DNA from: Alphaproteobacteria bacterium
Lineage (GTDB): Bacteria > Pseudomonadota > Alphaproteobacteria > CAAHEQ01 > UBA3637
Reading direction: 5' to 3'
Length of the DNA: 64,000 nt
NCBI GenBank assembly: GCA_015062395.1
Contig: SUUS01000002.1
Span: 35,028 to 99,027 of the forward strand
The position numbers and the translations under genes are program-made. The notes below the pieces were generated by a model. It worked only from the letters and a program-made list of their open reading frames with translations. It had not been told where the DNA came from and did no database searches. Of the stretch, positions 9,050-38,879 are shown in pieces. Every line of letters begins with the position of its first letter. Within the stretch, counting starts at the first letter, position 1.

Positions 9050-10555
9050 TCAACTATTAATTGTATTTTTTTGCTTTTTATGAAAATAAAGACCAAAAGC
9101 AATAAACAATAGACTTAAAAATAACGGAATACAGTTTCCCAATCGTGCATATAGGGGAGGGGGTAATGGTTTGGGAAGTTTGCTGTCTAATACGCCTTGT
9201 GAATCAAGCGGTAATGAAGACATAATTTGTCCCCAAGGGTAAATAACAGCGCTGATTCCTGTTCCTGCAACTCTGACAATGGGTAAGCCTTCCTCAACAG
9301 CGCGCATTTGAGCGCTGGCTAAATGTTGATAAGGACCAGCTGAAACGCCATACCAACCATCGTTAGTTAAATTAATCAGCCATTGTGGGCGCAGTTTAAC
9401 GTCGTTGTTGTCCACAACTTGGTGTGGAAATATGATTTCATAGCAAACCAACATTCCTGCTGGAGGGGCATTTTGTATGCGTACTGTTTTAGGTCCCGTA
9501 CCTGCTTTTAAATCTGAAGCAATCGGAACTATCTTTTCAAAAGGAAGCAGTCCACGCAACGGAACGTATTCGCCAAAAGGAACCAGATGAGATTTATCGT
9601 AATAACTTTGGATTTCACCCAAATCATTGATGACAAAAATAGAGTTAGCAACTTGCTGTTTTTGTGTATCAGCCAAACGCATAGAACCTGTCACCAATAC
9701 AGAACCTTGATTTAATGCCATCATTGTCATGGCTCTGGCTTGGTTATCTATATCAAGCAAAAATGGTGATGCGCTTTCGGACCACAAAACATGGGTTATT
9801 TTTTCATGTCCTGCTTTTTTGGATAAGTTGATGTGTTTCATGAAATTTTCTTCGGCTTTGTCTTTATTCCATTTTAACGTTTGTTCTATGTTCGGTTGGA
9901 CTAATCGAAGGTTGATTCCCCAAACATATTCGGGTGTTATTTGGTATAAACGAAGTGCTCCCAATAAACAAATAACCACAAATGAAGTTATGGAAATAAC
10001 AGCTGTTTTATATTGTTTTTTTATCAGTAAAAAAGGCGTTGAAAACCAAAAAAGGCTAAATAAAGTTAATCCATAAACACCAAAAACAGAGGCTGATTGC
10101 AAAACAGGTAAAAACTTAACCCAGACAGAACCTGTTAAATTCCATGGAAATCCTGTAAAAATCCAACTACGTATCCATTCAAAGATTGTAAAAACACCAC
10201 AAAAAATAAGTATTTTTGAACTAATTGAATTGGCCAAAATACAAAATAAAGCAGGAAACGCAAAGAATAAACCAAAAAATAATCCAAAGCCCAGGGGGAT
10301 AAGGGGCGATAATTGAGCAAATGCTCCCGCGTCGATTAACAATGCGTTGATAAGCCATAACATAGAGCAAGCACCCAAACCCAATCCAAAAGAAAATCCA
10401 GCAAAAAAAAGTTGTTTTTTATTTTTGGCGTTGTTCAGATACATAAAAAATAACGGATATGTGACGAGCAGTATAAAGATATAAGAAGTTGGAACGAATG
10501 CTAAAGCAGATAGTCCCCCCAATAAAATCAATAAAAAGTGATCGTATTTTTTCAT
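9050..10555 (-). CDS. lnt: Apolipoprotein N-acyltransferase
   Basis: N-terminal multi-TM region followed by a CN-hydrolase domain. Catalytic E (VQPNIEQTLKW), K, C (MLVCYEIIFP). 501 aa. Confidence 0.85.
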   Translation of the reverse strand: MKKYDHFLLILLGGLSALAFVPTSYIFILLVTYPLFFMYLNNAKNKKQLFFAGFSFGLGLGACSMLWLINALLIDAGAFAQLSPLIPLGFGLFFGLFFAFPALFCILANSISSKILIFCGVFTIFEWIRSWIFTGFPWNLTGSVWVKFLPVLQSASVFGVYGLTLFSLFWFSTPFLLIKKQYKTAVISITSFVVICLLGALRLYQITPEYVWGINLRLVQPNIEQTLKWNKDKAEENFMKHINLSKKAGHEKITHVLWSESASPFLLDIDNQARAMTMMALNQGSVLVTGSMRLADTQKQQVANSIFVINDLGEIQSYYDKSHLVPFGEYVPLRGLLPFEKIVPIASDLKAGTGPKTVRIQNAPPAGMLVCYEIIFPHQVVDNNDVKLRPQWLINLTNDGWYGVSAGPYQHLASAQMRAVEEGLPIVRVAGTGISAVIYPWGQIMSSLPLDSQGVLDSKLPKPLPPPLYARLGNCIPLFLSLLFIAFGLYFHKKQKNTINS

Positions 10556-10618
10556 TTTTTGTCCTTTATTTTTGCTTTTATTATATATTTAAAAAAGTTT
10601 TTGACAACCCAAAAAGAG

Positions 10619-10647
10619 TTGAAATTTTTGTTTTTTTAAGATATAAT
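10619..10647 (+). promoter_or_regulatory. Near-consensus sigma70 promoter TTGAAA-17-TATAAT
   Basis: -35 at 10619-10624, 17-nt spacer, -10 at 10642-10647. Followed by an AAGGAG RBS and a TTG start at 10676. Confidence 0.45.
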
Positions 10648-10675
10648 AAAAAAGAAATTTTTAAGGAGATAAAAA

Positions 10676-11401
10676 TTGGATTTTTTTACAGACGCATCTT
10701 TTAATTCAGAAAAGAAAATGGCTGGTATTGGCTGTGTTTGTGTGGATAAAGCAAATGGCGAAGTGTCTCATCACAGTTCTTGTATAAAGGTCGAAAATAT
10801 ACAACTGGCTGAATTATGTGCTTTGATGTTTGGTGTGCAAAAGGCGCTTTTATCGGGTGCTAAAACAGTCCGAATCGTTTCCGATTCTATGGCGTCAATT
10901 AACATATTACATAAGTATATTAATTGTGTTGATGGTGCAAAATTATCTTCTGAACAAAAAAAATTCATTAAACATTTAGAACAAACGCCTATGCAAAAAG
11001 AAGTTCTTGATAAAATGATAGATGTATTTATAAATTCTTCTATTACGTTTCAGTTTGCGCATGTAAACGGTCACCAAGAAACAAGAGAAAGTGGTTCTGA
11101 TGCGTATTGGAATAAACGTGCTGACAGGGCGTCTAAAAAGGGACGAATTTTAGCGCAAACCCTTTTTGAACAAAGCGTTTTGCGAGGGGTGGAACAGTTT
11201 TTAGAAACTAACACAGACGAACAAACGGACGATTGGCGTGCCAGAATACAGGTTCCTTTTATCCAAAATAAGAAAAAAGATAAGATACAGCGTCCTAAAA
11301 AGGTTGTACATCATAGAAAAGAAAATCCAAAACGTACATCTAGATCCGAAGGGATTAATTTGCGAATTATTAACAAAGTTTATGTGGGTCGTGGTCGATA
11401 A
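10676..11401 (+). CDS. RNase H type 1 domain protein with ~90-aa basic C-terminal extension
   Basis: Ordered catalytic residues TDASF (D), AELCAL (E), VSDS (D), HVNGHQ, NKRADRAS (D). Lys/Arg-rich C-terminal tail. Apparent TTG start. Confidence 0.55.
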   Translation: MDFFTDASFNSEKKMAGIGCVCVDKANGEVSHHSSCIKVENIQLAELCALMFGVQKALLSGAKTVRIVSDSMASINILHKYINCVDGAKLSSEQKKFIKHLEQTPMQKEVLDKMIDVFINSSITFQFAHVNGHQETRESGSDAYWNKRADRASKKGRILAQTLFEQSVLRGVEQFLETNTDEQTDDWRARIQVPFIQNKKKDKIQRPKKVVHHRKENPKRTSRSEGINLRIINKVYVGRGR

Positions 11402-11464
11402 AAAAAGATGTTGACAAAATCAGAAAAATAGTGTATAAATTTTCGTCCAAAGGAGTTTATAATA

Positions 11465-12208
11465 ATGACTAATATACATTCAGAATATTATCGTGTTGCA
11501 AGTTATCAGTGCAATAATGAACGTAAATTAAAGTTGGAAAGTGTTTTGAATTTACTTCAAGATTCGCTGGAATGTTTTGCTCAAACTTACAATTTTGGTG
11601 TGGATTTTGGGCGAAAAAGTAATAAAGGATGGGTTATCCGAAATAATGATGTTAACATTTATGACTTGCCAACTTTTGATGATAGGCTTGTTATCGATAC
11701 ACAAATTAAAAACATGCATAAATCGATATTGGAATTTTCTTCTGATGCTTACATGGTGGGTAATCGTAAAAAGAAATTATTTTCTTCTGTCAGTCAAACA
11801 GTTTTGATTGATATGTCAACGTTAAGACCTGTCAGAATCAAGGAAAATGTCCCTCATATTCCATCGGAAGAAAATGCAGTAAAAACACCTGTATTACCTA
11901 TTACGCCTTTGTCTCGTGTGGATCAGGAATTGGATAAGCCTGTTATGTGGGATTATATTGATTTTAATCAGCATGTCAATAATGCGGCTTATGTTGTTTT
12001 TGCACGTCAAACTTTGCCCAGTTCTTTTTATCAACAAAATGATTTGGTCAAAGTAAAGGTTGCTTATAAAGCTCCTGCAACATTGGGCGATACGATGGTT
12101 GTTCAAACACAAAGAGAAGGTTTGGAAAGTATTCATCGTATTGTATCTAAATCGGATAAGACAAAAGAGTTTGCTCGATTGCAAATGTTTTGGCGTGAAC
12201 GCGAATAG
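11465..12208 (+). CDS. Acyl-ACP thioesterase (FatA/FatB-type double hot-dog)
   Basis: N-terminal hot-dog YYRVASYQCNNERKLKLESVLNLLQD. C-terminal hot-dog motif DYIDFNQHVNNAAYV matches the D.NQHVNN.KY signature of acyl-ACP TEs. 247 aa. Confidence 0.65.
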   Translation: MTNIHSEYYRVASYQCNNERKLKLESVLNLLQDSLECFAQTYNFGVDFGRKSNKGWVIRNNDVNIYDLPTFDDRLVIDTQIKNMHKSILEFSSDAYMVGNRKKKLFSSVSQTVLIDMSTLRPVRIKENVPHIPSEENAVKTPVLPITPLSRVDQELDKPVMWDYIDFNQHVNNAAYVVFARQTLPSSFYQQNDLVKVKVAYKAPATLGDTMVVQTQREGLESIHRIVSKSDKTKEFARLQMFWRERE

Positions 12209-12264
12209 TTATAATAAAAATACTTGCATTTGAAAAAAGAATCGAGTATAACTGTTTTCGTTAT

Positions 12265-12323
<59 letters not shown>

Positions 12324-12340
<17 letters not shown>

Positions 12341-12836
12341 AAAAAACCGTCCGAAAGGGCGGCTTTTTTGTATGTGTGCGTAAGGCGAAGAACTCGAAAG
12401 AGGGCGTGGCTTGAAAATCTTCCAAGAAGGACGATTTTCAAACGCAAGCCCAATGATACCTTATGTTTGATAGACCATGGCAATGGTCGCATCAAACATT
12501 AGTTTCCATTGCACGAAATTTTTCTGAAAGAAAAATGTGCCTCCACGCGCCTACCAAAAAAACCGTCCGAAAGGGCGGCTTTTTTGTATGTGTGCGTAAG
12601 GCGAAGAACTCGAAAGAGGGCGTGGCTTGAAAATCTTCCAAGAAGGACGATTTTCAAACGCAAGCCCAATGATACCTTATGTTTGATAGACCATGGCAAT
12701 GGTCGCATCAAACATTAGTTTCCATTGCACGAAATTTTTCTGAAAGAAAAATGTGCCTCCACGCGCCTACCAAAAAACCGTCCAGAAGGGCGGCTTTTTG
12801 TATGTGTGCGTAAGGCGAAGAACTCGAAAGAGGGCG
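12324..12836 (+). repeat. Tandem 216-bp direct repeats (2 full + 81-bp partial), each starting with the last 17 nt of tRNA-Lys (att-like)
   Basis: Unit = cctccacgcgcctacca + terminator hairpin ccgtccgaaagggcgg + about 175 bp. Copies start at 12324, 12540 and 12756 and are near-identical. The third copy diverges after 12836. Confidence 0.85.
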
Positions 12837-12952
12837 CAAATCCAAAAAACGTCTTAAAAAATAAAAATTAAATACAATTTTTCTTGATAAAAAAATCTTT
12901 TTTTGCTTGCAAAAATGTTTCTTTTATGATATTATGACAAAATGCTTGACAA

Positions 12953-13975
12953 ATGGGAAAGGGAAAAACAATGTCATCAAAACAAAAAACATCTCAAAAA
13001 ATTTGGAATTTAACATCTGAACAACGTACTCATTTAACAGAAATGTTAAAAACAGCAGGATTTGTAGAACCAGCTACGATTAATAAAATGATTGAACGCA
13101 TTCGTACTTCAAAAACAGATGTTGGCCAAGCAATTATGACACGTTGGTTAAATAATCGTTCTGAAAACGGAATGAAAAAATGGATGGATAATCTTTTGTT
13201 TCGTTTACGTCATACAGAAATGACGCGTGAAAAATTAATAGATGTATTATCAAAACAGCCGACTTTGTTTTTCAGCAAACCAGAAACTTTATATGAAAAT
13301 GGAAAAACATTACAAGATAATTTAAAGCAAAAAGGGATTGAATTATCAGATAAAATTATTTTTAATTCTCAAATGTTTGGAACGGGTATTTTAGCACGTT
13401 CTCCAGATACGATTGCTAAAAACATTGAAAATTTAGTCAAAATTTTTGAAAAAAGAGGTGTCAATTTAAATCATGACGATTTTATTGAGCGTGTTTTAAA
13501 AGAACGCAACCAGTTGTTGATGCAAAAAGATGCAACTTTGGCGTCTAATATCGATACTTTGGCACGCGTATTGGCAGGGGCTGGTTATCCAATAACAATC
13601 CCCCAATATGCAAAGGCTTGTAGCAGCCAGTTGAGTTTGATATATAGAAAGCCTCAAACAATCGCAGCGAATTTTTCACGCGTATATGAATTTCTTGAAA
13701 ATGAACATTGTCGTTTAGCGTGTGATCCGAAAAAAGATATTAAAACGCCTGAAACGATGGTTACAAAAATTTTAGCAGATCCTGCTCAAATCGGATTGAG
13801 CGAGGATAATTGGAAAACACGTTGGTTATTGGCTTGTCAAATGCGAGAAAGCAATGGAAAAATTCCAAGTTATACACAAATTATGGGCGTGAAAAAGCCT
13901 GAAGTCGTTCGTCGTTTAACTGGATATCGTTGTCCTTTGATGCGTGCGCTTGATAACATAAAACAACGAGATTAA
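12953..13975 (+). CDS. Hypothetical protein (340 aa), orphan accessory gene
   Basis: Own promoter-like TTGCAA-17-TATTAT upstream and a strong terminator downstream. Alpha-helical. No recognisable catalytic motif. Confidence 0.4.
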   Translation: MGKGKTMSSKQKTSQKIWNLTSEQRTHLTEMLKTAGFVEPATINKMIERIRTSKTDVGQAIMTRWLNNRSENGMKKWMDNLLFRLRHTEMTREKLIDVLSKQPTLFFSKPETLYENGKTLQDNLKQKGIELSDKIIFNSQMFGTGILARSPDTIAKNIENLVKIFEKRGVNLNHDDFIERVLKERNQLLMQKDATLASNIDTLARVLAGAGYPITIPQYAKACSSQLSLIYRKPQTIAANFSRVYEFLENEHCRLACDPKKDIKTPETMVTKILADPAQIGLSEDNWKTRWLLACQMRESNGKIPSYTQIMGVKKPEVVRRLTGYRCPLMRALDNIKQRD

Positions 13976-26651: not shown

Positions 26652-26862
26652 TTTTTTGTTTTGACTCTTTTCTTTTTGATGATTATAATTGATGCTTGTG
26701 AAAAATACAAGACTTTTATTAAATATAAAGGAAAAAAGATGCGTCAAAAGAAAAAACATTATGGGATTAAGTTGTTAATTGTCTTAATTTTAGCTTTTTG
26801 TGCTTGGGGTTATTTTTGGGATGCGCCAGCTCCAACAGGCAGTTTTGAAAAGATTTTATCGA

Positions 26863-27987
26863 ATGATGTTTTACAAAATTAAAATTGCTTTTTTATCCGT
26901 TGTTCTGTGTTTTTTTTGTTTTTTCTCTGTAAAAGCAGAATTACAGATTGAAGAGTTGAATGGTAATTTAACGGATGCATTGGGTGTTGAAAAAACATTG
27001 CCTTTCAGCGCATGGGGTGATTTGCCTTTTGATGATTTAGTTGAAATTACAAACCAGCTATCTGTACAAAAAAAATCTGCTTGGCTTGCAAAATTAACAG
27101 CTACTGTTTTAATGCAGCAAACATTTATAGAGCAAAATAATTGGTCAGAGAAACAATCCCAAAAGTGGTTGTTGACACGATTAAATGCGCTGTTGAATTT
27201 GGGGTATCCTGCTCAAGCGTTAATGATGATAGAGCAGTTGCCGATGACCTCTTTGAATAAAGATGTTTTAAAGTTGAAAATGGATGCGCTTTTCTTGACT
27301 GAACAATGGCAAGAAGCTTGTGTTATTGCGCTTCAAAATGCGTCAGAAGATGATTATTTTAATCACGTTCAAGTGTTGTGTCTGGGTTTGCTGGACAATC
27401 AAGATAAAGCATCGATGGCTTTTGATTTGTGGCAAGAAGAACATCCCAATGAAAAAACAGCTTCTTTTGTGATGGGAAAATTGTTGGGGTTGGAATTGCC
27501 TAAAAGCGACAAAATGGATAATTTAACGATTGCTGATGTTTTTGTGTTGAGGATGTTAAATGCAAAAGAATTGGATGAAATTGTTTTGCCTTTACCTTAT
27601 CAGGTTTTGCCTTTGCATTCTTATAGCGATTTTGGGAGTGCTATCAATACTCGGCTTTTATTCGAACGCTGGGAAAAATCTGGATTATCTGAAACACAAA
27701 AAGCGTACAGATATTATCTGTTGAATGTTTATGCGAGTATGTTTCTTCCAGAACTGCGTTTTTTCAAAAACGATTTTTTATGGAATGAAGCGCTTTTGCA
27801 AATGAATTTTTCTTTGCGTTCTTTGTATTTAAAAGATAAAACAGAAACACAAATAACGGGTTCGGATTTGTTGTTAGGATTATGGTTATTAAATGAACAG
27901 TCTTTGAACATTCAAGATGCGATGATAATTTTGTTTAAAGGTGGATTAGATTTGAAAAATTATGTGTTGGAGCAAATAAATTCATGA
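26863..27987 (+). CDS. Hypothetical exported protein
   Basis: Signal-peptide-like MMFYKIKIAFLSVVLCFFCFFSVKA. Start codon uncertain; the ORF track begins at 26800. Confidence 0.4.
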   Translation: MMFYKIKIAFLSVVLCFFCFFSVKAELQIEELNGNLTDALGVEKTLPFSAWGDLPFDDLVEITNQLSVQKKSAWLAKLTATVLMQQTFIEQNNWSEKQSQKWLLTRLNALLNLGYPAQALMMIEQLPMTSLNKDVLKLKMDALFLTEQWQEACVIALQNASEDDYFNHVQVLCLGLLDNQDKASMAFDLWQEEHPNEKTASFVMGKLLGLELPKSDKMDNLTIADVFVLRMLNAKELDEIVLPLPYQVLPLHSYSDFGSAINTRLLFERWEKSGLSETQKAYRYYLLNVYASMFLPELRFFKNDFLWNEALLQMNFSLRSLYLKDKTETQITGSDLLLGLWLLNEQSLNIQDAMIILFKGGLDLKNYVLEQINS

Positions 27988-28907
27988 CGCGTGATACAGG
28001 ACAAAATTTATCAGACAAATGGATTGAAAATTTTTTGCAAGTGATGGTTGCAGAACAAGGCGCCAGTCCCAGAACAATCACTGCATACCGTCATGATTTG
28101 CAAGATTTAGCTGCTTTTTTAAAGGTTGATAACGTTGCGTTATGTAAGGCAAAAAGAAAAAATTTGCAATCTTATATTCAAACGTTGGCTAAAAACGGCT
28201 TGTCAGCTAAAACGCAAGCGCGCAGGTTATCTGCTATGCATGAATTTTATCGTTTTTTATATTCGGAAGAAATACGTGATGATAATCCAACAAATTTACT
28301 AGATTGTCCTAAAATAGGAAAAGCTTTACCGAAGTATTTGAACGAAACGGAAGTCAATTTATTAATTGATGCGGGAAAACAAAAAGATGTGCGTCTTGGT
28401 GTGTTATTAGAGGTTGCTTATGCGTCAGGAATGCGTGTAAGTGAGTTGGTTGAACTGCCTTTAACTGCAGTTTTACATGATGGTCAGATGGTAATGATAA
28501 CAGGTAAAGGTGGTAAGCAGCGAATGGTTCCATTGAATGATGTTGCTAAAATTGCTTTGGATAATTGGCTGATACAACGTGAAACATATTTAAAGCGAGG
28601 TCGGTCATCTAAATGGTTGTTCCCATCAAAATCTTCAACAGGACATTACACCAGAGATGCTTTTTTTAAAGCGTTAAAAGCTTTAGCTTTGGAAGTCGAT
28701 ATTGCACCACAAAGGGTTTCTCCCCACGTTTTGCGACATTCTTTTGCATCGCATTTAGTTGCCCATGACGCTGATTTGCGAAGTGTCCAAAAAATGTTGG
28801 GACATTCTGACATTGCAACAACTGAAATTTATACGCATGTGATGGAAGAGCGATTAAAAAAAATAATTTCTCAAAAACATCCCTTGTCAAATATACATAA
28901 AATCTGA
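27984..28907 (+). CDS. xerD: Tyrosine recombinase XerD
   Basis: R..H..R..Y catalytic arrangement: HVLRHSFASHLV...DIATTEIYTHV. N-terminal ITAYRHDLQDLAAFL. Confidence 0.85.
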   Translation: MTRDTGQNLSDKWIENFLQVMVAEQGASPRTITAYRHDLQDLAAFLKVDNVALCKAKRKNLQSYIQTLAKNGLSAKTQARRLSAMHEFYRFLYSEEIRDDNPTNLLDCPKIGKALPKYLNETEVNLLIDAGKQKDVRLGVLLEVAYASGMRVSELVELPLTAVLHDGQMVMITGKGGKQRMVPLNDVAKIALDNWLIQRETYLKRGRSSKWLFPSKSSTGHYTRDAFFKALKALALEVDIAPQRVSPHVLRHSFASHLVAHDADLRSVQKMLGHSDIATTEIYTHVMEERLKKIISQKHPLSNIHKI

Positions 28908-28919
28908 TATAAGGTAATT

Positions 28920-31900
28920 ATGAAAAAAATAAATATATACATAATAAAGCAATTATTGCTCGGATTTGTTTTAATAGCTTTGGGAATGACAGCCTTGATT
29001 TGGCTGTCTCAAAGCTTGCGTTTGATTGATTGGATTGTCAACAAAGGTGTTTCTGTTAATTTATTTATTGAATTGACATTGCTTGTCTTGCCGAATTTTA
29101 TCGCAATTATTACACCTTTGGCGTTTTTTATTGTGTTGTTGTTTATTTATCAACGTTTGTTGGCAGACAGAGAGCTAATTGTCATGAAAGCCGCAGGGAT
29201 GTCAGCTTTTGATTTGGCAAAGCCAGCGTTATTTGTTGCCGTTTTGTTGACTGTTTTGGGATATTTTTTAACCCTTTGGTTGGTTCCTTATTCAGTGTCT
29301 CAATTTAAAGAATTGCAATTTAAAATTCGAAACAATTTGGCTCAAGTTGCTATACAGGAAGGAGAATTTAACCAACTGCCGAATAACATAACGGTTTATG
29401 TTCGGGAATTTAAACCATCAGGACATTTAAAAGGTATTTTAATACACGATGATAAAAACCCAGAAAAACGAGTCGTTATTGTCGCGCAAGAAGGCCGTTA
29501 TTTAATGTCTGACGGTAAGGCAAAAATTGATATGCTAGAAGGAACGCGTCAAGAATATGACCGTCAAACAGGGGCATTCAATTCTTTAAGTTTCCAAAAA
29601 AATGTCGTCGTTTTTGAAGAAAGTAAAAATAACAAAGTCAGAACAAGGGGTGAAGAAGAATTAACGTTAAAACAGTTGTTAGCTGCGCGTTCTGATGATG
29701 AAAATATAAAGCCACTTCAGTATCGTGAATATAAGGTTGAAGCTTTTAAACGCTTAACACAGCCATTGTACGCATTGGCATATTTGTTTGTTGGATTATT
29801 GCCTTTGTTGTTGGGACATTATAATCGTCGTGGACAAAGTGGGCGTGTTTATTTTGCTGTTGGATGCGTTGTTTTATTACAGTCAATGGCGTTGGGATTT
29901 GAAAATTTATCTAATAAAAATTTGTGGTTTTTAATTTTGATGGCAGCTAATTTATTGATTCCGATTGTCGTTGGTTTTGTCATTTTAAAAAGGGGGCGTT
30001 TGAGCTTAAAAAATAATATCCTCAACAAATTTTTAGCGCGCTTTTTTATCGTTTTAGCTTTGTTCTTTCCAACGCCTATTTTTGGTGCTTCGAATGTTCA
30101 GTTCGTTTCAGATACTCAAATTCATAAAGATGCACCAGTCGATTTTGAAGCAGATAGTATTTCTTACAGTCAAAATGCCCAAGTTATGACTGCTACTGGA
30201 AACGTTATGCTGAATCAAAAAGGGACTGTTTTGCAAGCTGATAAATTAGTTTATAATCAGCAAAGCGAACAAGGGATGGCACAAGGAAACGTTGTGTTGA
30301 CACGTCCAGACGGGGTTAAATTATACGCAAAAAGTGCAGAATTGTCTGAAAATTTTAATAATGCATTATTTGAAGATGTTTCACTAAAATTAGCTGATGG
30401 TTCAACCTTTAGTTCGCAGTCTGTCGTTCGAAAAGATAATGGCAATACATCTGTTTTTGATAAGGCATTTTTTACACCTTGTACTTATTGTACGCCAGAA
30501 AAACCTTTATGGGATATATCAGCGCAACAAATTAAACACGACTATGCGCAACAAGAATATGAATTTTATCATGCTTTTTTTGATGTCAAGGGAGTTCCTA
30601 TTTTTTACTGGCCATATTTAACATTTCCAGATTTTCAAGTTAAACGAAAAACGGGTTTTTTAACGCCTTCTTTAGCTAATTCAACAGAAATGGGATTTGG
30701 ATTTGAATTGCCATTCTTTTGGGATATTTCAGATTCTCAAGACTTATATTTAGAGCCAATCATAACAGGTCGTCACTTTCCTTTAATTCAAGGGCAATAT
30801 CGTGGAATTTATCATCAATCGCAATTAATGACGTCTTTTTCGATGACAAAAGATGATGATGATAATAATAAAGAAGGTCATATTAAAATCTATTATCAAA
30901 ATGATTTAACATCTTCATTGCGTTTTACTGGGCAGTATTATCGTGTTAGCAATCAAACATATTTTCGACGTTATCCGATTAATAATGTTGACGATCAAGA
31001 ACCGTGGATTAAAAGTTTCGGTAAGTTAGAGTATTTTGGTGCGCAAAGCTATGGATTTTTGAATGTGATGGATTTTCAAAATTTACGTCGTTATGTTTCA
31101 AATGATTCGATGCCTATTGTCAGTCAGATAGACTATTCTTATACAAGCAAGCCAATTTGGAAAGGGTTATATTCTGTTTCAACAATCAATGGTGCTGATA
31201 TTTACAGAAAAACAGAAGAACGTTCTACGCGTTTGTCATTCGAACAGTCTTTTGTTTTACCGTACATTTCATCATGGGGGCTTGTTTTTGAAAACAAGCT
31301 ATCTGCCAGAGTAGATGGTTATGCCTTGCGTTTTGAAGATAATCGTTCAACGAATCAAGGACGCTTTTATACAGTGGCATCTTCGAAAATCAGTTATCCT
31401 TTGGTGTCTTATGGCAAAAATTATAGTCAAGTTATTGAACCTGTTTTAATGGGCGTTTTAAGTCCAAATTCTAAACCAGATAATCGTATTCCAAATGAAG
31501 ATAGTTTAGATGTTGTTTTTGATGACGTTAATTTATTTTCGGCAAACCGATATGACGGTTATGACAGGGTTGAAACAGGTACTCGCTTAAATTATGGTTT
31601 ATTGTGGCGTTTGTATGGTCCTAAAAATATGTACTTATCTGCAATGCTTGGGCAATCCTATCGTATTCGAAGAGATAATACGTCTATGGCAAATGCTGGT
31701 TTTGAACGTCATTTTTCGGATTATGTTGGATATTTGAATATGGACTTTAAAGATTTTGGTTTAGGATACCGTTTTCGCTTTAACCAAGAAGATTTTAGTC
31801 AGGAAATGTCCGAGGCGCGTTTTTACATAGGAAGAAATCCTTTAAAATTAAATGTTTCTTATTTGTATTTGAAAGCATCCAAGGAAGCTTTAATAAATAA

Positions 31901-32156
31901 AGCGCTCAAAGATAGGGAAGAAATTTATATTTCTGTCAACTCTAAATTAACACAAGCTTTTAGTTCTTTTGGGTATTATCGATACGATTTATCTAAAGAT
32001 GGTGGTCCAACAGAGGCTGGTGGGGGCTTGCAATACGATAATGAATGTATTAGTTTATTATTCACTGTAGAAAAAGAATTTACAAAAGATCAAAATTATA
32101 AAGGGGATACATCCTTTTATGTTCGATTGCTTCTAAAGACTTTGGGAGGTATTTAA
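28920..32156 (+). CDS. lptD: LptF/LptG-family permease fused in-frame to LPS-assembly protein LptD (1078 aa)
   Basis: Residues 1-360 form a complete YjgP/YjgQ permease (3 TM, periplasmic domain, 3 TM). The residues after that begin with a signal-peptide-like FLARFFIVLALFFPTPIFGA and continue as an OstA/LptD beta-barrel. No in-frame stop separates the two. A TTG at 30000 with a GGGGG RBS-like motif is a possible internal start. Confidence 0.7.
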   Translation: MKKINIYIIKQLLLGFVLIALGMTALIWLSQSLRLIDWIVNKGVSVNLFIELTLLVLPNFIAIITPLAFFIVLLFIYQRLLADRELIVMKAAGMSAFDLAKPALFVAVLLTVLGYFLTLWLVPYSVSQFKELQFKIRNNLAQVAIQEGEFNQLPNNITVYVREFKPSGHLKGILIHDDKNPEKRVVIVAQEGRYLMSDGKAKIDMLEGTRQEYDRQTGAFNSLSFQKNVVVFEESKNNKVRTRGEEELTLKQLLAARSDDENIKPLQYREYKVEAFKRLTQPLYALAYLFVGLLPLLLGHYNRRGQSGRVYFAVGCVVLLQSMALGFENLSNKNLWFLILMAANLLIPIVVGFVILKRGRLSLKNNILNKFLARFFIVLALFFPTPIFGASNVQFVSDTQIHKDAPVDFEADSISYSQNAQVMTATGNVMLNQKGTVLQADKLVYNQQSEQGMAQGNVVLTRPDGVKLYAKSAELSENFNNALFEDVSLKLADGSTFSSQSVVRKDNGNTSVFDKAFFTPCTYCTPEKPLWDISAQQIKHDYAQQEYEFYHAFFDVKGVPIFYWPYLTFPDFQVKRKTGFLTPSLANSTEMGFGFELPFFWDISDSQDLYLEPIITGRHFPLIQGQYRGIYHQSQLMTSFSMTKDDDDNNKEGHIKIYYQNDLTSSLRFTGQYYRVSNQTYFRRYPINNVDDQEPWIKSFGKLEYFGAQSYGFLNVMDFQNLRRYVSNDSMPIVSQIDYSYTSKPIWKGLYSVSTINGADIYRKTEERSTRLSFEQSFVLPYISSWGLVFENKLSARVDGYALRFEDNRSTNQGRFYTVASSKISYPLVSYGKNYSQVIEPVLMGVLSPNSKPDNRIPNEDSLDVVFDDVNLFSANRYDGYDRVETGTRLNYGLLWRLYGPKNMYLSAMLGQSYRIRRDNTSMANAGFERHFSDYVGYLNMDFKDFGLGYRFRFNQEDFSQEMSEARFYIGRNPLKLNVSYLYLKASKEALINKALKDREEIYISVNSKLTQAFSSFGYYRYDLSKDGGPTEAGGGLQYDNECISLLFTVEKEFTKDQNYKGDTSFYVRLLLKTLGGI

Positions 32157-33352
32157 TGAATAAATTATATGCTGTGATTTTGATAGGGTTATTTTTTGCT
32201 TTGCCTTTGCAAGCTGGTCAAATAAAGGCTGTCGTTCAAGATGAAATTATTACTGATTTAGATGTTGAACAGCGTGTACAAATTATGGAAAAAATGTTCC
32301 AAATGCCAGCTGATGAAAAAATGAAAAAGCAGGTACTAGATGATTTAATCAATGAAAAAGTGAAAATTTTTTCTGCTGTTGAAAAAGGAATACAAATTTC
32401 GGACGAACAAATTAAACAAGGCGTTTCTTTTTTAGAACAGCGAAATCAAATGGCTTCAGGAGAATTGGAAAAATTTTTTAAAGAACATAATCTTTCCATG
32501 AACAGTCTGTACGCACAAATCGAAGCTGATATCGCTTGGTTGCACTATATTCAATCGTTGGATTTAAAACGCACGGAAATAACACAAAAACAGATTAACG
32601 AAAAAATAGCTGATTTAAAAAAACAATTAATGTATGCATCCTATTTATTGGGTGAAATTTATATTCCTTTTGCTGGAAACGAAGTTGCTGCAGAACAAGA
32701 AATTACGATGCTTTTCAATCGAATAGTTGATGGCGAATCATTTACAGATTTAGCTAAAGCGTATTCAAAGGGAAAAACAGCCCATTTGATGGGGGATTTA
32801 GGTTGGGTTAAATCTGGTCAAATGGAAAAAGCTGTTGATGATGCTTTACCCGAAATTCAGGTGGGACAATTATCCAAGCCAATAAAAGGAAAAGATGGTT
32901 TTTATTTAATTTTGATGCGTGATAGTCAACCAGCATTGGATTCTGATATGCAAGAATTTATCCAAGCAAGTCAATTAGTTTTAAATCAAGAAGATTACCC
33001 TTCGTTGAAAGAGGGTTTACAAAAAGCTTCTGAAAATTGTATGAGTTTTACTCAATTTGCAATGACACATGGTGTGTCTGGTTCAAGGTCTGGTGCTTTG
33101 CCAGAAATGATGACTTCGCGATTGCCGTCGGAATTAAGGATGTTGTTATCTGATCAACCTGTGGGGGCTTTAATAGGACCGATACAAATGTCTCCGTACT
33201 TGCTGTTTGTGATGAAGTGTGGTGTCAAAGTTCAATCTGTTTTGCCAGACAACGATGTTGTTCGTGAAAATTTGCAAGTTCAAAATATGGAACAACAAGC
33301 CGAAGAAATTTTACAAAAAAATCGCAAAAAAATGTTCGTGGAAATTAAATAA
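32156..33352 (+). CDS. surA: Periplasmic chaperone/PPIase SurA
   Basis: Signal peptide and a parvulin domain GDLGWVKSGQM. taATG overlap with the lptD stop codon. Confidence 0.75.
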   Translation: MNKLYAVILIGLFFALPLQAGQIKAVVQDEIITDLDVEQRVQIMEKMFQMPADEKMKKQVLDDLINEKVKIFSAVEKGIQISDEQIKQGVSFLEQRNQMASGELEKFFKEHNLSMNSLYAQIEADIAWLHYIQSLDLKRTEITQKQINEKIADLKKQLMYASYLLGEIYIPFAGNEVAAEQEITMLFNRIVDGESFTDLAKAYSKGKTAHLMGDLGWVKSGQMEKAVDDALPEIQVGQLSKPIKGKDGFYLILMRDSQPALDSDMQEFIQASQLVLNQEDYPSLKEGLQKASENCMSFTQFAMTHGVSGSRSGALPEMMTSRLPSELRMLLSDQPVGALIGPIQMSPYLLFVMKCGVKVQSVLPDNDVVRENLQVQNMEQQAEEILQKNRKKMFVEIK

Positions 33353-34189
33353 ATGTATGAATTAAAACAAATTATACAAAAATATGAATTAAATGCCAAA
33401 AAATCATTGGGGCAAAATTTTATTTTAGATACAAATCTGTTAAATAAAATTGCAAGAATGGCTTTGGCTGGTATTAAGCATGATACAGTTTTGGAAGTCG
33501 GTCCTGGACCTGGGGGATTGACCCAAGCATTGTTGGAACAAGGCGATTTTTCAATGACTGCCGTTGAAAAAGATGAAAGATGTGTTAAAGCATTGTCCGA
33601 GTTGGCATCCGATTTCCCAAATCGTTTAACAATTTTGAATGAAGATGCTTTGCTTTTTGATGAAGCTTCTTTGGGCAAAGATATTTGTGTCGTGGCGAAT
33701 TTGCCATATAATGTATCAACAGTTTTATTAGTAAAATGGCTAAAGAAAATAGATTTGTTTTCTGGTTTGACTTTAATGTTTCAAAAGGAAGTCGCAGACA
33801 GATTGCTTGCAGATGCAAACGATGAAGCTTATGGGCGTTTATCCGTTTTAACAAAATGGTTAGCCGACGTTTCTTGTTTGATGATTTTACCTCCTGCTGT
33901 TTTTTCTCCAGCACCCAAAGTCACTTCTGCATTGGTTCGCATTCAGCCCAAAAAAACAAGAGCTGCTGGATTTTCTTTTGATACACTCTCAAAACTTACA
34001 CAGGCAGCGTTTAATACACGCAGAAAAATGTTAAGAGTTTCTTTAAAAGCATTGGGATTATCTGCAGATGAAATTATTCAACTTTGTGCCAGTGCAAATA
34101 TCGAGCCAACATTTCGAGCCGAACAAGTGACTGTTGACCAATTTTGTTTAATGGCCAAGTGGTTCGAGGATTATTTATGTGCGAAATAA
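33353..34189 (+). CDS. rsmA: 16S rRNA (adenine1518/1519-N6)-dimethyltransferase
   Basis: GQNFILDTNLLNKI, VLEVGPGPGGLT, NLPYNVST motifs. Confidence 0.9.
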   Translation: MYELKQIIQKYELNAKKSLGQNFILDTNLLNKIARMALAGIKHDTVLEVGPGPGGLTQALLEQGDFSMTAVEKDERCVKALSELASDFPNRLTILNEDALLFDEASLGKDICVVANLPYNVSTVLLVKWLKKIDLFSGLTLMFQKEVADRLLADANDEAYGRLSVLTKWLADVSCLMILPPAVFSPAPKVTSALVRIQPKKTRAAGFSFDTLSKLTQAAFNTRRKMLRVSLKALGLSADEIIQLCASANIEPTFRAEQVTVDQFCLMAKWFEDYLCAK

Positions 34190-34500
34190 TAAAAATTTTT
34201 CCTGATGCTGTTCATTTATCTGTTCGTGTTTGCCCTGGTGCAAAACGCAATGCTCTTGAAAGTATTTGGAATAATACCCATATTCGTATAGCATTACAAG
34301 CTCCTGCTGTTGATGGTAAGGCAAATGAGGCTTTGATAGCTTTTTTGGCAAAGATTTTGGACGTAAAGAAAAAAAACATTGAAATTATCGCTGGACAAAC
34401 CAATCGCTGTAAGATAGTATCTATACAAGTACAAGATACAGATGAAAGGATTAAAATAGAAACATGGTTGAAACAAAAATTATTGATGGAAAGCAAATAG
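34177..34500 (+). CDS. DUF167 (YggU-like) protein
   Basis: LSVRVCPGAKRNAL...GKANEALIAFLAKIL signature. Start taken at the internal ATG. Confidence 0.55.
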   Translation: MCEIIKIFPDAVHLSVRVCPGAKRNALESIWNNTHIRIALQAPAVDGKANEALIAFLAKILDVKKKNIEIIAGQTNRCKIVSIQVQDTDERIKIETWLKQKLLMESK

Positions 34501-35409: not shown

Positions 35410-36111
35410 ATGCATTTGAAACATCTTTTAACATCTGTTTGTTTGGTTTTGGCATTGAATATAGGTGTTTGTAAACCTGTGTTGGCGCGTCATGTGGTTT
35501 CTGACCCAGCAGCGACGGCAATGTCAATACAAAACTTGGTTCAAGATATTTTGGCTGTTGTTAAGAAAATCGCTGATTTGAATGAGTTTATCAAGCGTAA
35601 TACTAGTCAAGGAAGTATTGGTGCTATAGCCAATAAATTGGACTTTTCAAAAATGCAAAAAGAAGTTTTGGATGCTGCAAAATCTACTGTTCCTGAAACC
35701 TTAAAAGATGTTGGGTTTGAAGATATGATGAAAGATACGCAACAAATGATGTCTTTCCTTAAGGAGGATTTGATGCTTCCTTTACAGTCTTCATCGCAAG
35801 AGGAAGCACTGACGGATACGCAAAAGCAAGAACGTCTGGAAAAACGTCAAGATGTTAAAAATACCGCGATTTCTGATGCTTATGCAACTGCTGTTGCGTA
35901 TTTAAACAGAAAAACAAAAGCTCAAGAAGAAATTGTTAATCCGACTAAAAAAGTGGCAGGTAGTGCAGATACCATTCATGCAAAAGAAGGGGCTGCAAAC
36001 GAAGCTGCTTTAGCGCGATTAAATGAAGGAATTGAACGCAATGCATTGTTGGCTGAACTTTTGAAATTGCGTGCTGCAGAAGCTTTGGGAAATATACCGT
36101 TGGATGGTTAA
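35410..36111 (+). CDS. Secreted alpha-helical protein, VirB5/TrbJ-like candidate (paralog a)
   Basis: Signal peptide. 233 aa. Helical, charged composition. Paralogous to the next ORF (VQDILAVVKK/VQEIIEVVQN; SIGAIANKLD/EIGAIMPKVID). Confidence 0.3.
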   Translation: MHLKHLLTSVCLVLALNIGVCKPVLARHVVSDPAATAMSIQNLVQDILAVVKKIADLNEFIKRNTSQGSIGAIANKLDFSKMQKEVLDAAKSTVPETLKDVGFEDMMKDTQQMMSFLKEDLMLPLQSSSQEEALTDTQKQERLEKRQDVKNTAISDAYATAVAYLNRKTKAQEEIVNPTKKVAGSADTIHAKEGAANEAALARLNEGIERNALLAELLKLRAAEALGNIPLDG

Positions 36112-36138
36112 ATAATCGAAGAGGAAAGGATATGCGCA

Positions 36139-36843
36139 ATGTTGAAAACAAAAACTTTTATTTCTTCTTTTCTTTTAGGCGTGGTTTTGACGGCTTCTCC
36201 TGCTTATGCTGTTGTTGATATCGTTAAATTGTTGCAACATACATTGCGAAATGTGCAGGAAATTATCGAAGTTGTTCAAAATGAATCATCATTAAAAGAA
36301 TCTACAAATTATTCAAAGTTGCAAGGTGAAATTGGTGCAATAATGCCCAAAGTCATTGATTTAGGTTCGAAAGTAAAAGACGCTTCTTTTACGCCTGTTT
36401 TGCCCAGTGAAATTCAAGGTTTGTTGGGTGATAAAGGAATGGCTGCAGTTCCTCAACTCCGTTCATTTTTATCTAAAGATTTAAAATCTATCAATGTTGG
36501 AGATGTTGTTGGACAACGTGATGCTTTAGCAGCAATTAGTGAACAGATGAATTTGGGTGGTATTGAAGCTTTTAAAAACGGAAAAGAAGCAATGGCATTG
36601 CTGAATAAAGCGCCCAATGAATTGATGCAACAGCTCAGTGTTGCAACGGGCGCGAAAGATATGCAAAACAAAATTACTCAAGAAACAGGAAATAGTATCC
36701 AAATTTTAAAAAGTGATATTGCGATTAATCAGCATTTGGCCAGAAAAATTGAAACGCTGGCTCAAAGTTTAAGATTGGATGTTAAAAAAGGATTGCAAGA
36801 GGCTGGTAAACAGCTTACAGAAAATACAGGAGGTCAACAATGA
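36139..36843 (+). CDS. Secreted alpha-helical protein, VirB5/TrbJ-like candidate (paralog b)
   Basis: Signal peptide MLKTKTFISSFLLGVVLTASPAYA. 234 aa. Paralog of 35410-36111. Confidence 0.3.
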   Translation: MLKTKTFISSFLLGVVLTASPAYAVVDIVKLLQHTLRNVQEIIEVVQNESSLKESTNYSKLQGEIGAIMPKVIDLGSKVKDASFTPVLPSEIQGLLGDKGMAAVPQLRSFLSKDLKSINVGDVVGQRDALAAISEQMNLGGIEAFKNGKEAMALLNKAPNELMQQLSVATGAKDMQNKITQETGNSIQILKSDIAINQHLARKIETLAQSLRLDVKKGLQEAGKQLTENTGGQQ

Positions 36844-38879
36844 TGCGCTATTTAAAACAGTTTTTGGTTGTTTTGTTGATGCCTTTGTTTTTTTGTGGGC
36901 GTCCCGTTTATGCTGGCGAGGTTAATTCGCCCAGTGAAGAAGTTTCTTTCTTCGGGCATTTTATGCAAAAAATCAGTAAAACAGCTTTATATATTGAAAC
37001 CATAGCAGAAGGCGTCACGTACATTACCTCTATTGGGGAAGATGGGAACTCTTTTATGGGATTTTTGTCTTCAATGGCAGGGAATCTGGGACCTTTCCAA
37101 GATACGTTAAATTTTGGTGATGCAGGTCAGTTTGGTTCTTTATTGGATGGTGCTTTTGATACTGCTGGAGATATTTTAAGTGGTGATATTGATTGGAATA
37201 ATCTGGGCAGTACAGCTTTGGGTGTGACTGGACAAGCAGGAACTTTATTGATTGGTTCTGGGCACCCGATTGGTATTGTTGCTGGTTTTGCTGTAAAAAT
37301 CGGAAGTGATGTTGCAAACCATGCGATTCAAGGTGGCGATATGAGCTTTGGTTCGTTGGCTGGTGTCGTTTTGGTTTCAGGTGCAGAAGGCGCTATTAGT
37401 GGGTTAGCTGGTGGGGCTGGAGGTGGCGCTGCTGGTGCTGGGGGTGGTTTAAGTGGAATCCTCGGTGGCGCTGGTGGTGCAGGTTCTGGTTTGTCTGGAT
37501 TATTGGGGGGCTCTGGAGGACTTGGGAATCTGTCTAGTGCATTAGGTGGTTCTGGTGGGCTTGGTAATTTGGCGAGTGCATTGGGTGGATCTGGTGGACT
37601 TGGTAATTTAGCAAGTGCGTTAGGTGGTTCTGGTGGGCTTGGTAATTTGGCAAGTGCATTGGGTGGTTCTGGTGGACTTGGTAATTTAGCAAGTGCGTTA
37701 GGTGGTTCTGGTGGGCTTGGTAATTTGGCAAGTGCATTGGGTGGTTCTGGTGGACTTGGTAATCTATCTACTGCGTTGGGTGGTTTGACTGGTTCTGGAC
37801 TGTCGGGTTTAAACGGTCTTTCATCAGCATTAAGTGGTTCTGGTTTGTCTGGACTTTCTAGTTTAGTCAATGGTGGAGGACTTTCTTCTTTTGCTAATTT
37901 AAATTCTTTATCTGGTATTGCAGGTGCATCGAATTTATCCAGTTTACTTAATTCGTTCGGTTCAGGCAATGTTAGTGGATTGGCAAATTCTTTGGGTGGT
38001 ATAGATGTTAGTACTCTGGGACGGGTATTAAATAACGGGGATATGTCTTCTTTAGCTGGGATGTTAGGTGGCTCTAATTCTTCAGCGTTAGCTGGTATTT
38101 TTGGAAATGCTTTAGGCCAAATGGATGCATCTTCATTATCTTCTGTTTTAGGAAATACAGATATTAACAGTTTAGCATCGGCATTATCATCAGGAGATTT
38201 AAGCGCTTTACAAGGGGTTGATATTAATTCTTTGATGTCTGTAATGGGGAATGCAGATATTTCATCGTATGCTTCTCAAATGATGGGGAGTGGAACGACT
38301 GCAGGTTCGACAGATCCGTTAAGTTCTTATGCGCGTATAGCTCAAATTACAGAAAGTTATGGAGCACCTCAAGAAGACAAAGCGACTGCACAGAAGTATG
38401 TAAAAGAAGCATTCTTTTACAGTACGCACGAAAATGATGAAATTGATGGCGTGCTTTTAACAGAACAAGAAAATGCAAGAGATAAAATCATTCAAAATCG
38501 AAAAGCATATCAGCAAGAAGTTGTTTCTTTGGCATTAGCAACAGCTTATGAAAACAGAACAACTGCACATGAAGAAACAACAACACGTTATGGTGATTTG
38601 CGTTCTAATGTTGGTTCTGCAAAAACAATTAATGATAAAAAGGGGATGGAAGGTGCGATTACTCAAGAAGAAACGCGTCAAAGAATAACGTCGTTGTCTT
38701 TGGAACTAGCGTTGTTGGAGTTAGAATTGGTTGAAGATTTGCAAAAAGAACCTGAAAATTATATCATTGCAAGAACGGCTGAACAAATAACTGACGAAAC
38801 AAAAGAAAAAACATCTGAAATCGATTTTTTAGATGATGCAGGAAGCGTTGGGCATGCAGGTATTTTAGTCGATGGATAG
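36840..38879 (+). CDS. Secreted Gly/Ser/Leu-rich repeat protein (679 aa)
   Basis: Signal peptide. Eight tandem 13-aa units LGGSGGLGNLASA. Long SxLxxL low-complexity tract. Charged helical C-terminus. Confidence 0.5.
   Translation: MMRYLKQFLVVLLMPLFFCGRPVYAGEVNSPSEEVSFFGHFMQKISKTALYIETIAEGVTYITSIGEDGNSFMGFLSSMAGNLGPFQDTLNFGDAGQFGSLLDGAFDTAGDILSGDIDWNNLGSTALGVTGQAGTLLIGSGHPIGIVAGFAVKIGSDVANHAIQGGDMSFGSLAGVVLVSGAEGAISGLAGGAGGGAAGAGGGLSGILGGAGGAGSGLSGLLGGSGGLGNLSSALGGSGGLGNLASALGGSGGLGNLASALGGSGGLGNLASALGGSGGLGNLASALGGSGGLGNLASALGGSGGLGNLSTALGGLTGSGLSGLNGLSSALSGSGLSGLSSLVNGGGLSSFANLNSLSGIAGASNLSSLLNSFGSGNVSGLANSLGGIDVSTLGRVLNNGDMSSLAGMLGGSNSSALAGIFGNALGQMDASSLSSVLGNTDINSLASALSSGDLSALQGVDINSLMSVMGNADISSYASQMMGSGTTAGSTDPLSSYARIAQITESYGAPQEDKATAQKYVKEAFFYSTHENDEIDGVLLTEQENARDKIIQNRKAYQQEVVSLALATAYENRTTAHEETTTRYGDLRSNVGSAKTINDKKGMEGAITQEETRQRITSLSLELALLELELVEDLQKEPENYIIARTAEQITDETKEKTSEIDFLDDAGSVGHAGILVDG
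37507..37775 (+). repeat. Tandem 39-bp (alternating, 78-bp super-unit) coding repeats
   Basis: ggtggttctggtgg(g/a)cttggtaattt(g/a)gcaagtgc(a/g)tt(g/a), about 7 copies. Confidence 0.8.

Follow-up and report, generated by a model that had tools for sequence, protein, structure and literature searches.

A conserved lptF::lptD gene fusion in gut and rumen Alphaproteobacteria with a predicted signal peptidase site at its junction

Can the two ends of the Lpt bridge, the inner-membrane permease LptF and the outer-membrane protein LptD, be encoded by one gene? The question is raised by a locus of an Alphaproteobacteria bacterium (assembly GCA_015062395.1, contig SUUS01000002.1, positions 35,028 to 99,027 of the forward strand; these 64,000 nt, to which all coordinates refer unless another locus is named, are called the window below). 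A single open reading frame (ORF) at 28920..32156 (+) starts there with ATG and encodes 1078 aa, running in frame from a permease into LptD with no stop codon at the junction. The ORF listing, the sequence and Pfam all bear out this arrangement as it had been described in an initial annotation of the DNA, which left three explanations side by side: a lost stop codon with LptD still started internally, a true fusion cleaved near the motif IFGA|S, and a sequencing error. We conclude that lptF::lptD is a real, selectively maintained gene fusion that goes back to an ancestor shared by a large clade of host-associated Alphaproteobacteria, living in gut and rumen. The best reading of its product, and judging from sequence a rather likely one, is a single precursor that would be cut by signal peptidase I at what was formerly the signal peptide of LptD.

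By domain content, both halves are ordinary members of their families. Upstream, the LptF equivalog model TIGR04407 matches aa 5-356 with 236.4 bits (cutoff 230), and the LptG model TIGR04408 scores 95.8 bits (cutoff 240). Since the former is above its cutoff and the latter far lower, the upstream half is LptF and not LptG; the initial annotation had called it an LptF/G-type permease and, in one of its three options, named lptG as the gene that lost its stop, but the gene is lptF. Pfam LptF_LptG (PF03739) covers aa 7-355 (232 bits). Downstream, LptD_N (PF03968) is found at aa 410-460 (22.8 bits, cutoff 20.4) and the LptD barrel (PF04453) at aa 659-1011 (147.8 bits, gathering cutoff 22.4). Two NCBIfam equivalog models of LptD missed their cutoffs (NF002997, 148 bits against 683; NF003358, 102 bits against 944); we take both to be built on distant proteobacterial LptDs, and the protein is called LptD by its domain content only. 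A sequence search of the PDB matched the first half to LptF chains and the second, from about residue 403, to LptD chains, always as separate chains.

An AlphaFold2 model built on 52 homologues (mean predicted local distance difference test, pLDDT, 81; predicted template modelling score, pTM, 0.54) renders both halves with confidence: six helices and a jellyroll for LptF, and a jellyroll and a barrel for LptD. The LptF moiety (aa 1-356, 28920..29987 +) has helices at residues 2-42, 46-82, 96-143, 265-298, 307-333 and 335-358 and strands at 150-232, with a pLDDT of about 80-90, and the model and the PDB matches agree on six transmembrane (TM) helices with a periplasmic beta-jellyroll between TM3 and TM4. 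The LptD moiety opens with the conserved motif KDAPVDFEAD. Its mature N-terminus and periplasmic jellyroll of the LptD_N/OstA fold (30093..30587 +; PF03968, model strands 408-556) contain C521 and C524; its C-terminal beta-barrel (30588..32156 +; PF04453, model strands up to residue 1072, PDB matches) contains C1043 and ends at the TAA stop (32154-32156). Cysteines of LptD are linked to its oxidative folding in the periplasm. All three are invariant in the columns of the homologue alignment, which suggests a periplasmic, disulfide-bonded LptD moiety. In the middle of the model, the only stretches of low confidence are 362-366 and 382-400, on either side of a 16-residue helix (367-382, pLDDT of about 50). 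A docking of this junction helix on LptF was considered and is not supported at such a pLDDT and at the pTM of the model; in the prediction, the helix looks like a linker or signal peptide rather than a packed seventh helix.

Is the missing stop codon an error of sequencing, assembly or gene calling, for instance one that dropped a stop or introduced an indel at the junction? An independent metagenome assembly in ENA (locus L076) is 99.97% identical across the gene and identical at the junction. A homologue search covered 5.8 billion protein clusters, and both halves are present in all of the 120 best homologues listed (at least 120 clusters, 38-100% identity), of which 117 have their full length of 1007-1098 aa and three (P0033, P0035 and P0121) are contig-end fragments that still span the junction. 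A scan of species-representative genomes returned 75 loci, most of them in metagenome-assembled genomes (MAGs) from rumen, human, rabbit and other guts labelled solely as 'Alphaproteobacteria bacterium'. Because a second assembly has the same junction, and because the fusion recurs in more than 120 protein clusters and in 40 species-level genomes, which come from many different studies and hosts, the artefact was rejected, and with it the sequencing error that the initial annotation had listed; we give it practically no chance, having found nothing in its favour. A chance origin is ruled out as well, because the frame stays open over 1078 codons in DNA of 36% G+C.

Two members of the fused clade are irregular in other ways. 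In locus L029 (JAFPYW010000020.1) a frame change at 12637, within the LptD barrel and away from the junction, splits the ORF in two (9989-12640 and 12637-13230), which could be an assembly error or a pseudogene. Locus L028 (CAZXTR010000002.1) is a fused-clade LptD fragment filed under 'uncultured Lactobacillales bacterium' and is probably a mis-binned contig.

A natural LptF-LptD fusion is not mentioned in the literature searched, and the NCBI labels on the fused proteins read either 'LptF' or 'LptD'. What is new here is the architecture of lptF::lptD; the component families were already known.

If the fusion is real, what joins its halves? Statistics over the 117 full-length family members give one constant order, in which TM6 is followed by a linker, an uncharged stretch, a small-x-small motif, about 14 residues and KDAPVDFEAD. 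The linker is 1-29 aa long (median 12) and always in frame; its median content is 5 K+R and 0 D+E. The uncharged stretch, corresponding to the h- and c-regions of a signal peptide, has a median of 16 aa. The best-scored cleavage site has Ala at -1 with A, V, S or T at -3 in 93% of the family sequences, compared with 3-19% for the N-in helices TM1, TM3 and TM5 of LptF, used as controls under the same scorer, which is a simple rule and not SignalP. The sequence of the segment is not conserved; its n-h-c architecture is kept. Parsimony on the tree counts at least some 22 changes of junction length among 40 species, an approximate figure as the segment boundaries were set by charged residues; all of these changes are in frame, and a stop was never seen.

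In the window, the junction reads K357 RGRLSLKNNILNKFLAR / FFIVLALFFPTPIF / G389-A390-S391. Its basic, cytoplasmic linker K357-R374 (KRGRLSLKNNILNKFLAR; 29988..30041 +) would serve both as the tail of LptF and as the n-region of the LptD signal peptide, and the putative internal signal peptide continues (30042..30092 +) with the h-region F375-F388 and the c-region G389-A390-S391, the motif I-F-G-A-S occupying aa 387-391. A signal peptidase I site is predicted after G389, A390 or S391, which would place the mature N-terminus of LptD at residue 390-392 (e.g. SNVQFVSDTQIHK). Across the family, the junction retains every feature of a cleavable Sec signal peptide. In the window the predicted n-, h- and c-regions are at an internal position (about aa 357-391), after TM6 of LptF, and not at the N-terminus of a separate LptD. 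Of the true fusion with cleavage near IFGA|S that the initial annotation had put forward, the fusion is what the comparative evidence favours, and the cleavage is a prediction made from the junction sequence.

The C-terminus of LptF is cytoplasmic in LptB2FG structures such as 5X5Y and 6MHU, and the route proposed for the fused protein starts from that topology. The mRNA would be translated from the ATG at 28920, which is preceded by a Shine-Dalgarno (SD)-like AAGG (28911..28922 + with the start codon; SD pairing energy, dG, -4.0 kcal/mol), into a 1078-aa precursor. The six LptF helices would enter the inner membrane and leave the end of TM6 in the cytoplasm, where the basic linker would also stay, obeying the positive-inside rule. 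The former LptD signal peptide would then enter the Sec translocon in an N-in/C-out orientation and thread the LptD part into the periplasm, and signal peptidase I would cut after the small-x-small motif (G389/A390/S391 in the window). Mature LptD, once freed, would be delivered to the outer membrane by SurA and BAM, and LptF would retain a short C-terminal tail in which the signal-peptide helix stays uncleaved. The inner- and outer-membrane ends of the Lpt bridge would as a result always be co-synthesized at 1:1.

Several points weigh against such a processed precursor. Outer-membrane proteins are normally exported post-translationally, and a barrel precursor of about 690 aa that is exported behind a co-translationally inserted polytopic protein is unusual. 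The cleavage-site scorer is a plain one, as said, and the window has PIFGAS as its c-region, where most relatives have the more canonical AxA. The remaining points concern an internal start of LptD. The initial annotation had noticed a TTG at 30000 preceded by GGGGG, and the string is indeed there: AAGGGGG (29990-29996), the spacer CGT and an in-frame TTG (30000-30002, codon of L361) make up a possible lineage-specific internal start at 29990..30002 (+). Its dG of -10.1 kcal/mol lies in the top 0.2% of the background, and the SD-like string is built from the rare codons AGG and GGG (4.9% and 12.9% usage). In a few other fused loci an ATG has been retained just before the h-region, its SD being moderate at about -6 to -8 kcal/mol (e.g. 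L011 and L014, at -7.9). In the sister lineages described below, lptD begins within the 3' end of lptF and has a good SD. Some LptD may therefore start at TTG30000 in the window, from a minor site specific to this species; it is not what maintains the fusion.

Pressed further, the same observations would have LptD made, as it is in the unfused relatives, mainly from a start of its own, here in the linker (TTG30000 in the window), with the read-through incidental and the long LptF extension irrelevant, degraded or never completed. We judge this unlikely. Each in-frame ATG, GTG or TTG in the linkers of 40 fused loci was scored for anti-SD pairing. Eight of the 40 linkers hold none of these codons, and eight have a candidate start with a dG of -5 kcal/mol or lower, a level reached by 11% of in-frame internal start codons, taken as background, versus 60% of true lptF starts (the true starts of the fused gene in the 40 loci have a median of -5.4 kcal/mol). 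A conserved internal start codon or ribosome-binding site was accordingly not found in the linkers of the 40 loci, where SD-like sites are no commoner than in the background.

The comparison of orthologous junctions that the initial annotation had proposed gives the same picture: 40 loci are fused with no stop, and the TTG and SD-like codons of the window are not conserved in the five closest loci. The closest relatives, at 68-76% identity, have Y-F-I/M/V where the window has R-L-S, and several relatives encode a K/R-R-G motif with CGN and GGT or GGC codons (e.g. CGG CGC GGT). The 3-nt spacer before TTG30000 is also short next to the 6 nt at the coupled surA start of the same genome. A consensus scan for an internal promoter ahead of the LptD part returned 27 sites, where 29.6 were expected, and none just upstream of 30000. 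Separate but coupled genes would have an lptF stop together with a conserved lptD start and SD; neither the window nor any of the 40 fused loci has a stop. A frame that was irrelevant should tolerate stops and frameshifts ahead of the internal start, and yet the length changes counted above are all in frame, with no stop in 40 species or 120 clusters. A lost stop with LptD initiated at TTG30000 is therefore not supported as the mechanism behind this locus.

A single precursor might also stay uncut. LptF would then sit in the inner membrane with a seventh TM segment as an anchor, LptD in the outer membrane, and a covalent link would span the envelope. The ORF is continuous and conserved, as this would require, and the topology is formally compatible, the N-in/C-out segment after TM6 placing LptD in the periplasm. 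Against it, the hydrophobic segment has a median of only about 16 uncharged residues, like the 16-residue helix of the model, and is shorter than TM1 and TM3 of LptF (19-24), though equal to the TM5 control (16). Ala at -1 with a small residue at -3 is kept in 93% of a family whose junction sequence is otherwise free, which fits selection for cleavage and would be needless for an anchor. The roughly 14 residues from the site to the first jellyroll strand are too short for the barrel to reach the outer membrane across a normal periplasm, and the link would tether the jellyroll edge where LptA docks, as we infer from known Lpt structures. Finally, fused and unfused states interchange in one lineage (see below), which argues for equivalent mature products. 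For these reasons an uncleaved protein seems to us hardly probable. A slim chance is left to a broader version, in which the precursor stays uncut or is only partly cut and acts as a covalent staple across the envelope or, more mildly, is cleaved and leaves a helix that would sit as a seventh one beside TM5/TM6 and replace or modulate LptC. The LptC anchor binds next to TM5/TM6 in E. coli LptB2FGC.

With cleavage by signal peptidase I kept as the preferred reading, where did the fusion come from? Re-annotation of the species-representative loci separates 41 fused loci, 14 with lptF and lptD adjacent without lptG, and 16 with lptF-lptG-lptD. A single fused ORF is the state of L001-L041 and L056. 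In L042-L050, L054, L059 and L075, and in cultured Haematospirillum sp. (L052 and L055), lptF and lptD are direct neighbours, each an ORF of its own in a different frame, and no lptG lies between the two. The lptF-lptG-lptD order belongs to the outgroups, namely Rhodospirillaceae, Kordiimonadales and others. In a neighbour-joining (NJ) tree of the LptD part the three states are nested in this order, with the fused clade beyond the adjacent-gene lineages. Bootstrapping returned the main fused clade in every one of 100 NJ trees. In the adjacent state, the lptD ATG typically overlaps the lptF stop (ATGA) and follows an SD of -7 to -9 kcal/mol, and the C-terminus of LptF is a long basic tail. Given this overlap in the sister lineages, an indel of one or two bases is enough to fuse the frames. 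The fusion would hence have arisen after lptG had been lost from between lptF and lptD, when a small frame change at the ATGA overlap merged the two reading frames.

A second fused lineage (P0128 and P0268-P0271, 1103-1163 aa) complicates this picture. Only 2 of 100 bootstraps place P0128 within the main fused clade, and the unfused P0272 and P0273, whose stop and start overlap by 1 nt or 8 nt, are closer to it than some fused members are. A separate P0128 lineage with unfused close relatives implies that the fusion arose more than once or is reversible.

An apparent LptG-LptD single ORF was also encountered (P0259, 1037 aa), in a G+C-rich organism. It shows no hydrophobic, signal-peptide-like segment between TM6 of LptG and the LptD jellyroll. 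A frameshift, an artefact of gene calling or another type of fusion may account for it.

The initial annotation had also remarked that one LptF/G paralogue only is adjacent, with xerD upstream in place of the partner, and this proved correct: phmmer with the LptF part as query found no second LptF/G paralogue in the 64-kb window. Nor is there an LptG-like ORF within 10 kb of any fused or adjacent-type locus, although the same search detected the LptG genes of the outgroups. LptF acts together with its paralogue LptG and with LptB; the absence of the partner from the locus is explained by the departure of lptG from the lptF-lptG-lptD cluster, which preceded the fusion. A search with the jellyroll returned no LptA or LptC paralogue in the window.

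How does the locus compare with known systems? Canonical Lpt genes are arranged as lptF-lptG and lptD-surA-pdxA-rsmA in E. coli and as lptF-lptG-lptD-surA in Alphaproteobacteria. The fused locus shares with them its ordinary halves and the surA-rsmA genes kept downstream; it differs in having no lptG in the cluster, a single frame for lptF and lptD, and an LptD signal peptide that is internal, after six TM helices, whereas the solved structures matched have LptF and LptD as separate chains. Closer are the coupled ATGA lptF/lptD pairs of the sister lineages, among them Haematospirillum sp. and gut MAGs such as UBA6347 and UMGS1296, which share the gene order lacking lptG and in which the LptD signal peptide comes after a basic tail of LptF. 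In these pairs the genes are separate ORFs and the lptD ATG has its own SD (-6.5 to -9 kcal/mol), whereas in the fusion the stop is gone and no start is conserved; the pairs represent its immediate evolutionary precursor.

Outside the Lpt pathway, FbcH offers a parallel. According to Thony-Meyer et al., the FbcH b/c1 precursor is reportedly processed at an internal signal sequence into two proteins. Fused cytochrome b/c1 genes are known from Bradyrhizobiaceae (PMC4986455). The precursor of Bradyrhizobium and its relatives likewise joins a polytopic inner-membrane protein upstream to a periplasm-facing partner of the same complex through an internal signal sequence, and the order of elements in lptF::lptD (a cytoplasmic end of a polytopic protein, a basic n-region, a short h-region, a small-x-small motif and an exported partner) is that of an FbcH-like polyprotein. 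FbcH belongs to another family and pathway, and both of its products remain in the inner membrane, whereas here the released product would cross the periplasm to the outer membrane.

Type I signal peptidases may also act after a TM segment that is not N-terminal in a polytopic protein, a class to which LtaS belongs. SpsB signal peptidase cleaves LtaS in S. aureus (PMC12260438), and the core-E1 region of hepatitis C virus is an example of a viral polyprotein with an internal signal peptide (PMC5402940). These cases share with the reading proposed here a cut that frees an extracytoplasmic domain, and they differ in that LtaS is one enzyme and not a fusion of two subunits, and in that the viral cases are systems of the eukaryotic endoplasmic reticulum.

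The genes around the fusion run in the order aroK (on the opposite strand), a hypothetical gene, xerD, lptF::lptD, surA, rsmA and folD. The xerD-type tyrosine recombinase gene (27984..28907 +; Pfam Phage_integrase and Phage_int_SAM_1) stops 12 nt short of the fused gene, and the closest relatives (L076-L079) have the same synteny. On the other side, surA (32144..33352 +, including its SD site; Pfam SurA_N and Rotamase) starts with an ATG at 32156 that shares 1 nt with the TAA stop of the fused gene. Its SD, GGGAGG, sits in the last LptD codons, which encode the conserved C-terminus ..TLGGI* (32144-32158 for the site and start), with a spacer of 6 nt, and this layout suggests that lptF::lptD and surA are translationally coupled. 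Next comes rsmA/ksgA (16S rRNA dimethyladenosine transferase; 33353..34189 +; Pfam RrnaAD), the following gene of the conserved lptD-surA-rsmA cluster.

Other features of the window and its relatives were noted in passing. In all four close relatives L076-L079 the gene caller predicts an ORF of 103-107 aa with PF02594 (PF1765-like) between rsmA and folD, overlapping the end of the former and the start of the latter and equivalent to about 34180-34500 of the window. ORFs with no Pfam match lie at 26800-27987 (+), 35410-38879 (+) and 39654-41582 (+), encoding 395, 233, 234, 679 and 642 aa; the 395-aa ORF lies upstream of xerD and occupies the same place in the closest relatives. Further downstream, a CagX/VirB9-like gene (43437-45059 +) precedes an ORF of 2488 aa (45159-52625 +) with a C-terminal TrbI/VirB10 domain, about 11 beta-flower repeats, DUF3659 repeats and an RHS repeat. 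The two genes (43437-52625 +) resemble a type IV secretion cluster whose VirB10-like member is a giant protein.

If the processed-precursor reading is true, these bacteria would make an outer-membrane beta-barrel protein as the C-terminal part of a polytopic inner-membrane protein. LptD would then follow a protein whose insertion is probably co-translational into the Sec translocon, in contrast to the post-translational route that is usual for outer-membrane proteins, and the two ends of the Lpt bridge would be produced strictly 1:1. The case would add a further example of polyproteins processed by signal peptidase, a rare mechanism in bacteria, and as a natural construct it lends itself to studies of the coupling between LptF and LptD levels. 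The naming of the fused proteins by NCBI as either LptF or LptD has a practical consequence, in that pathway reconstructions of these gut and rumen Alphaproteobacteria will wrongly report the other as missing. The series from lptF-lptG-lptD through overlapping lptF/lptD to the fusion, together with the second fused lineage, provides an example of translational coupling hardening into gene fusion.

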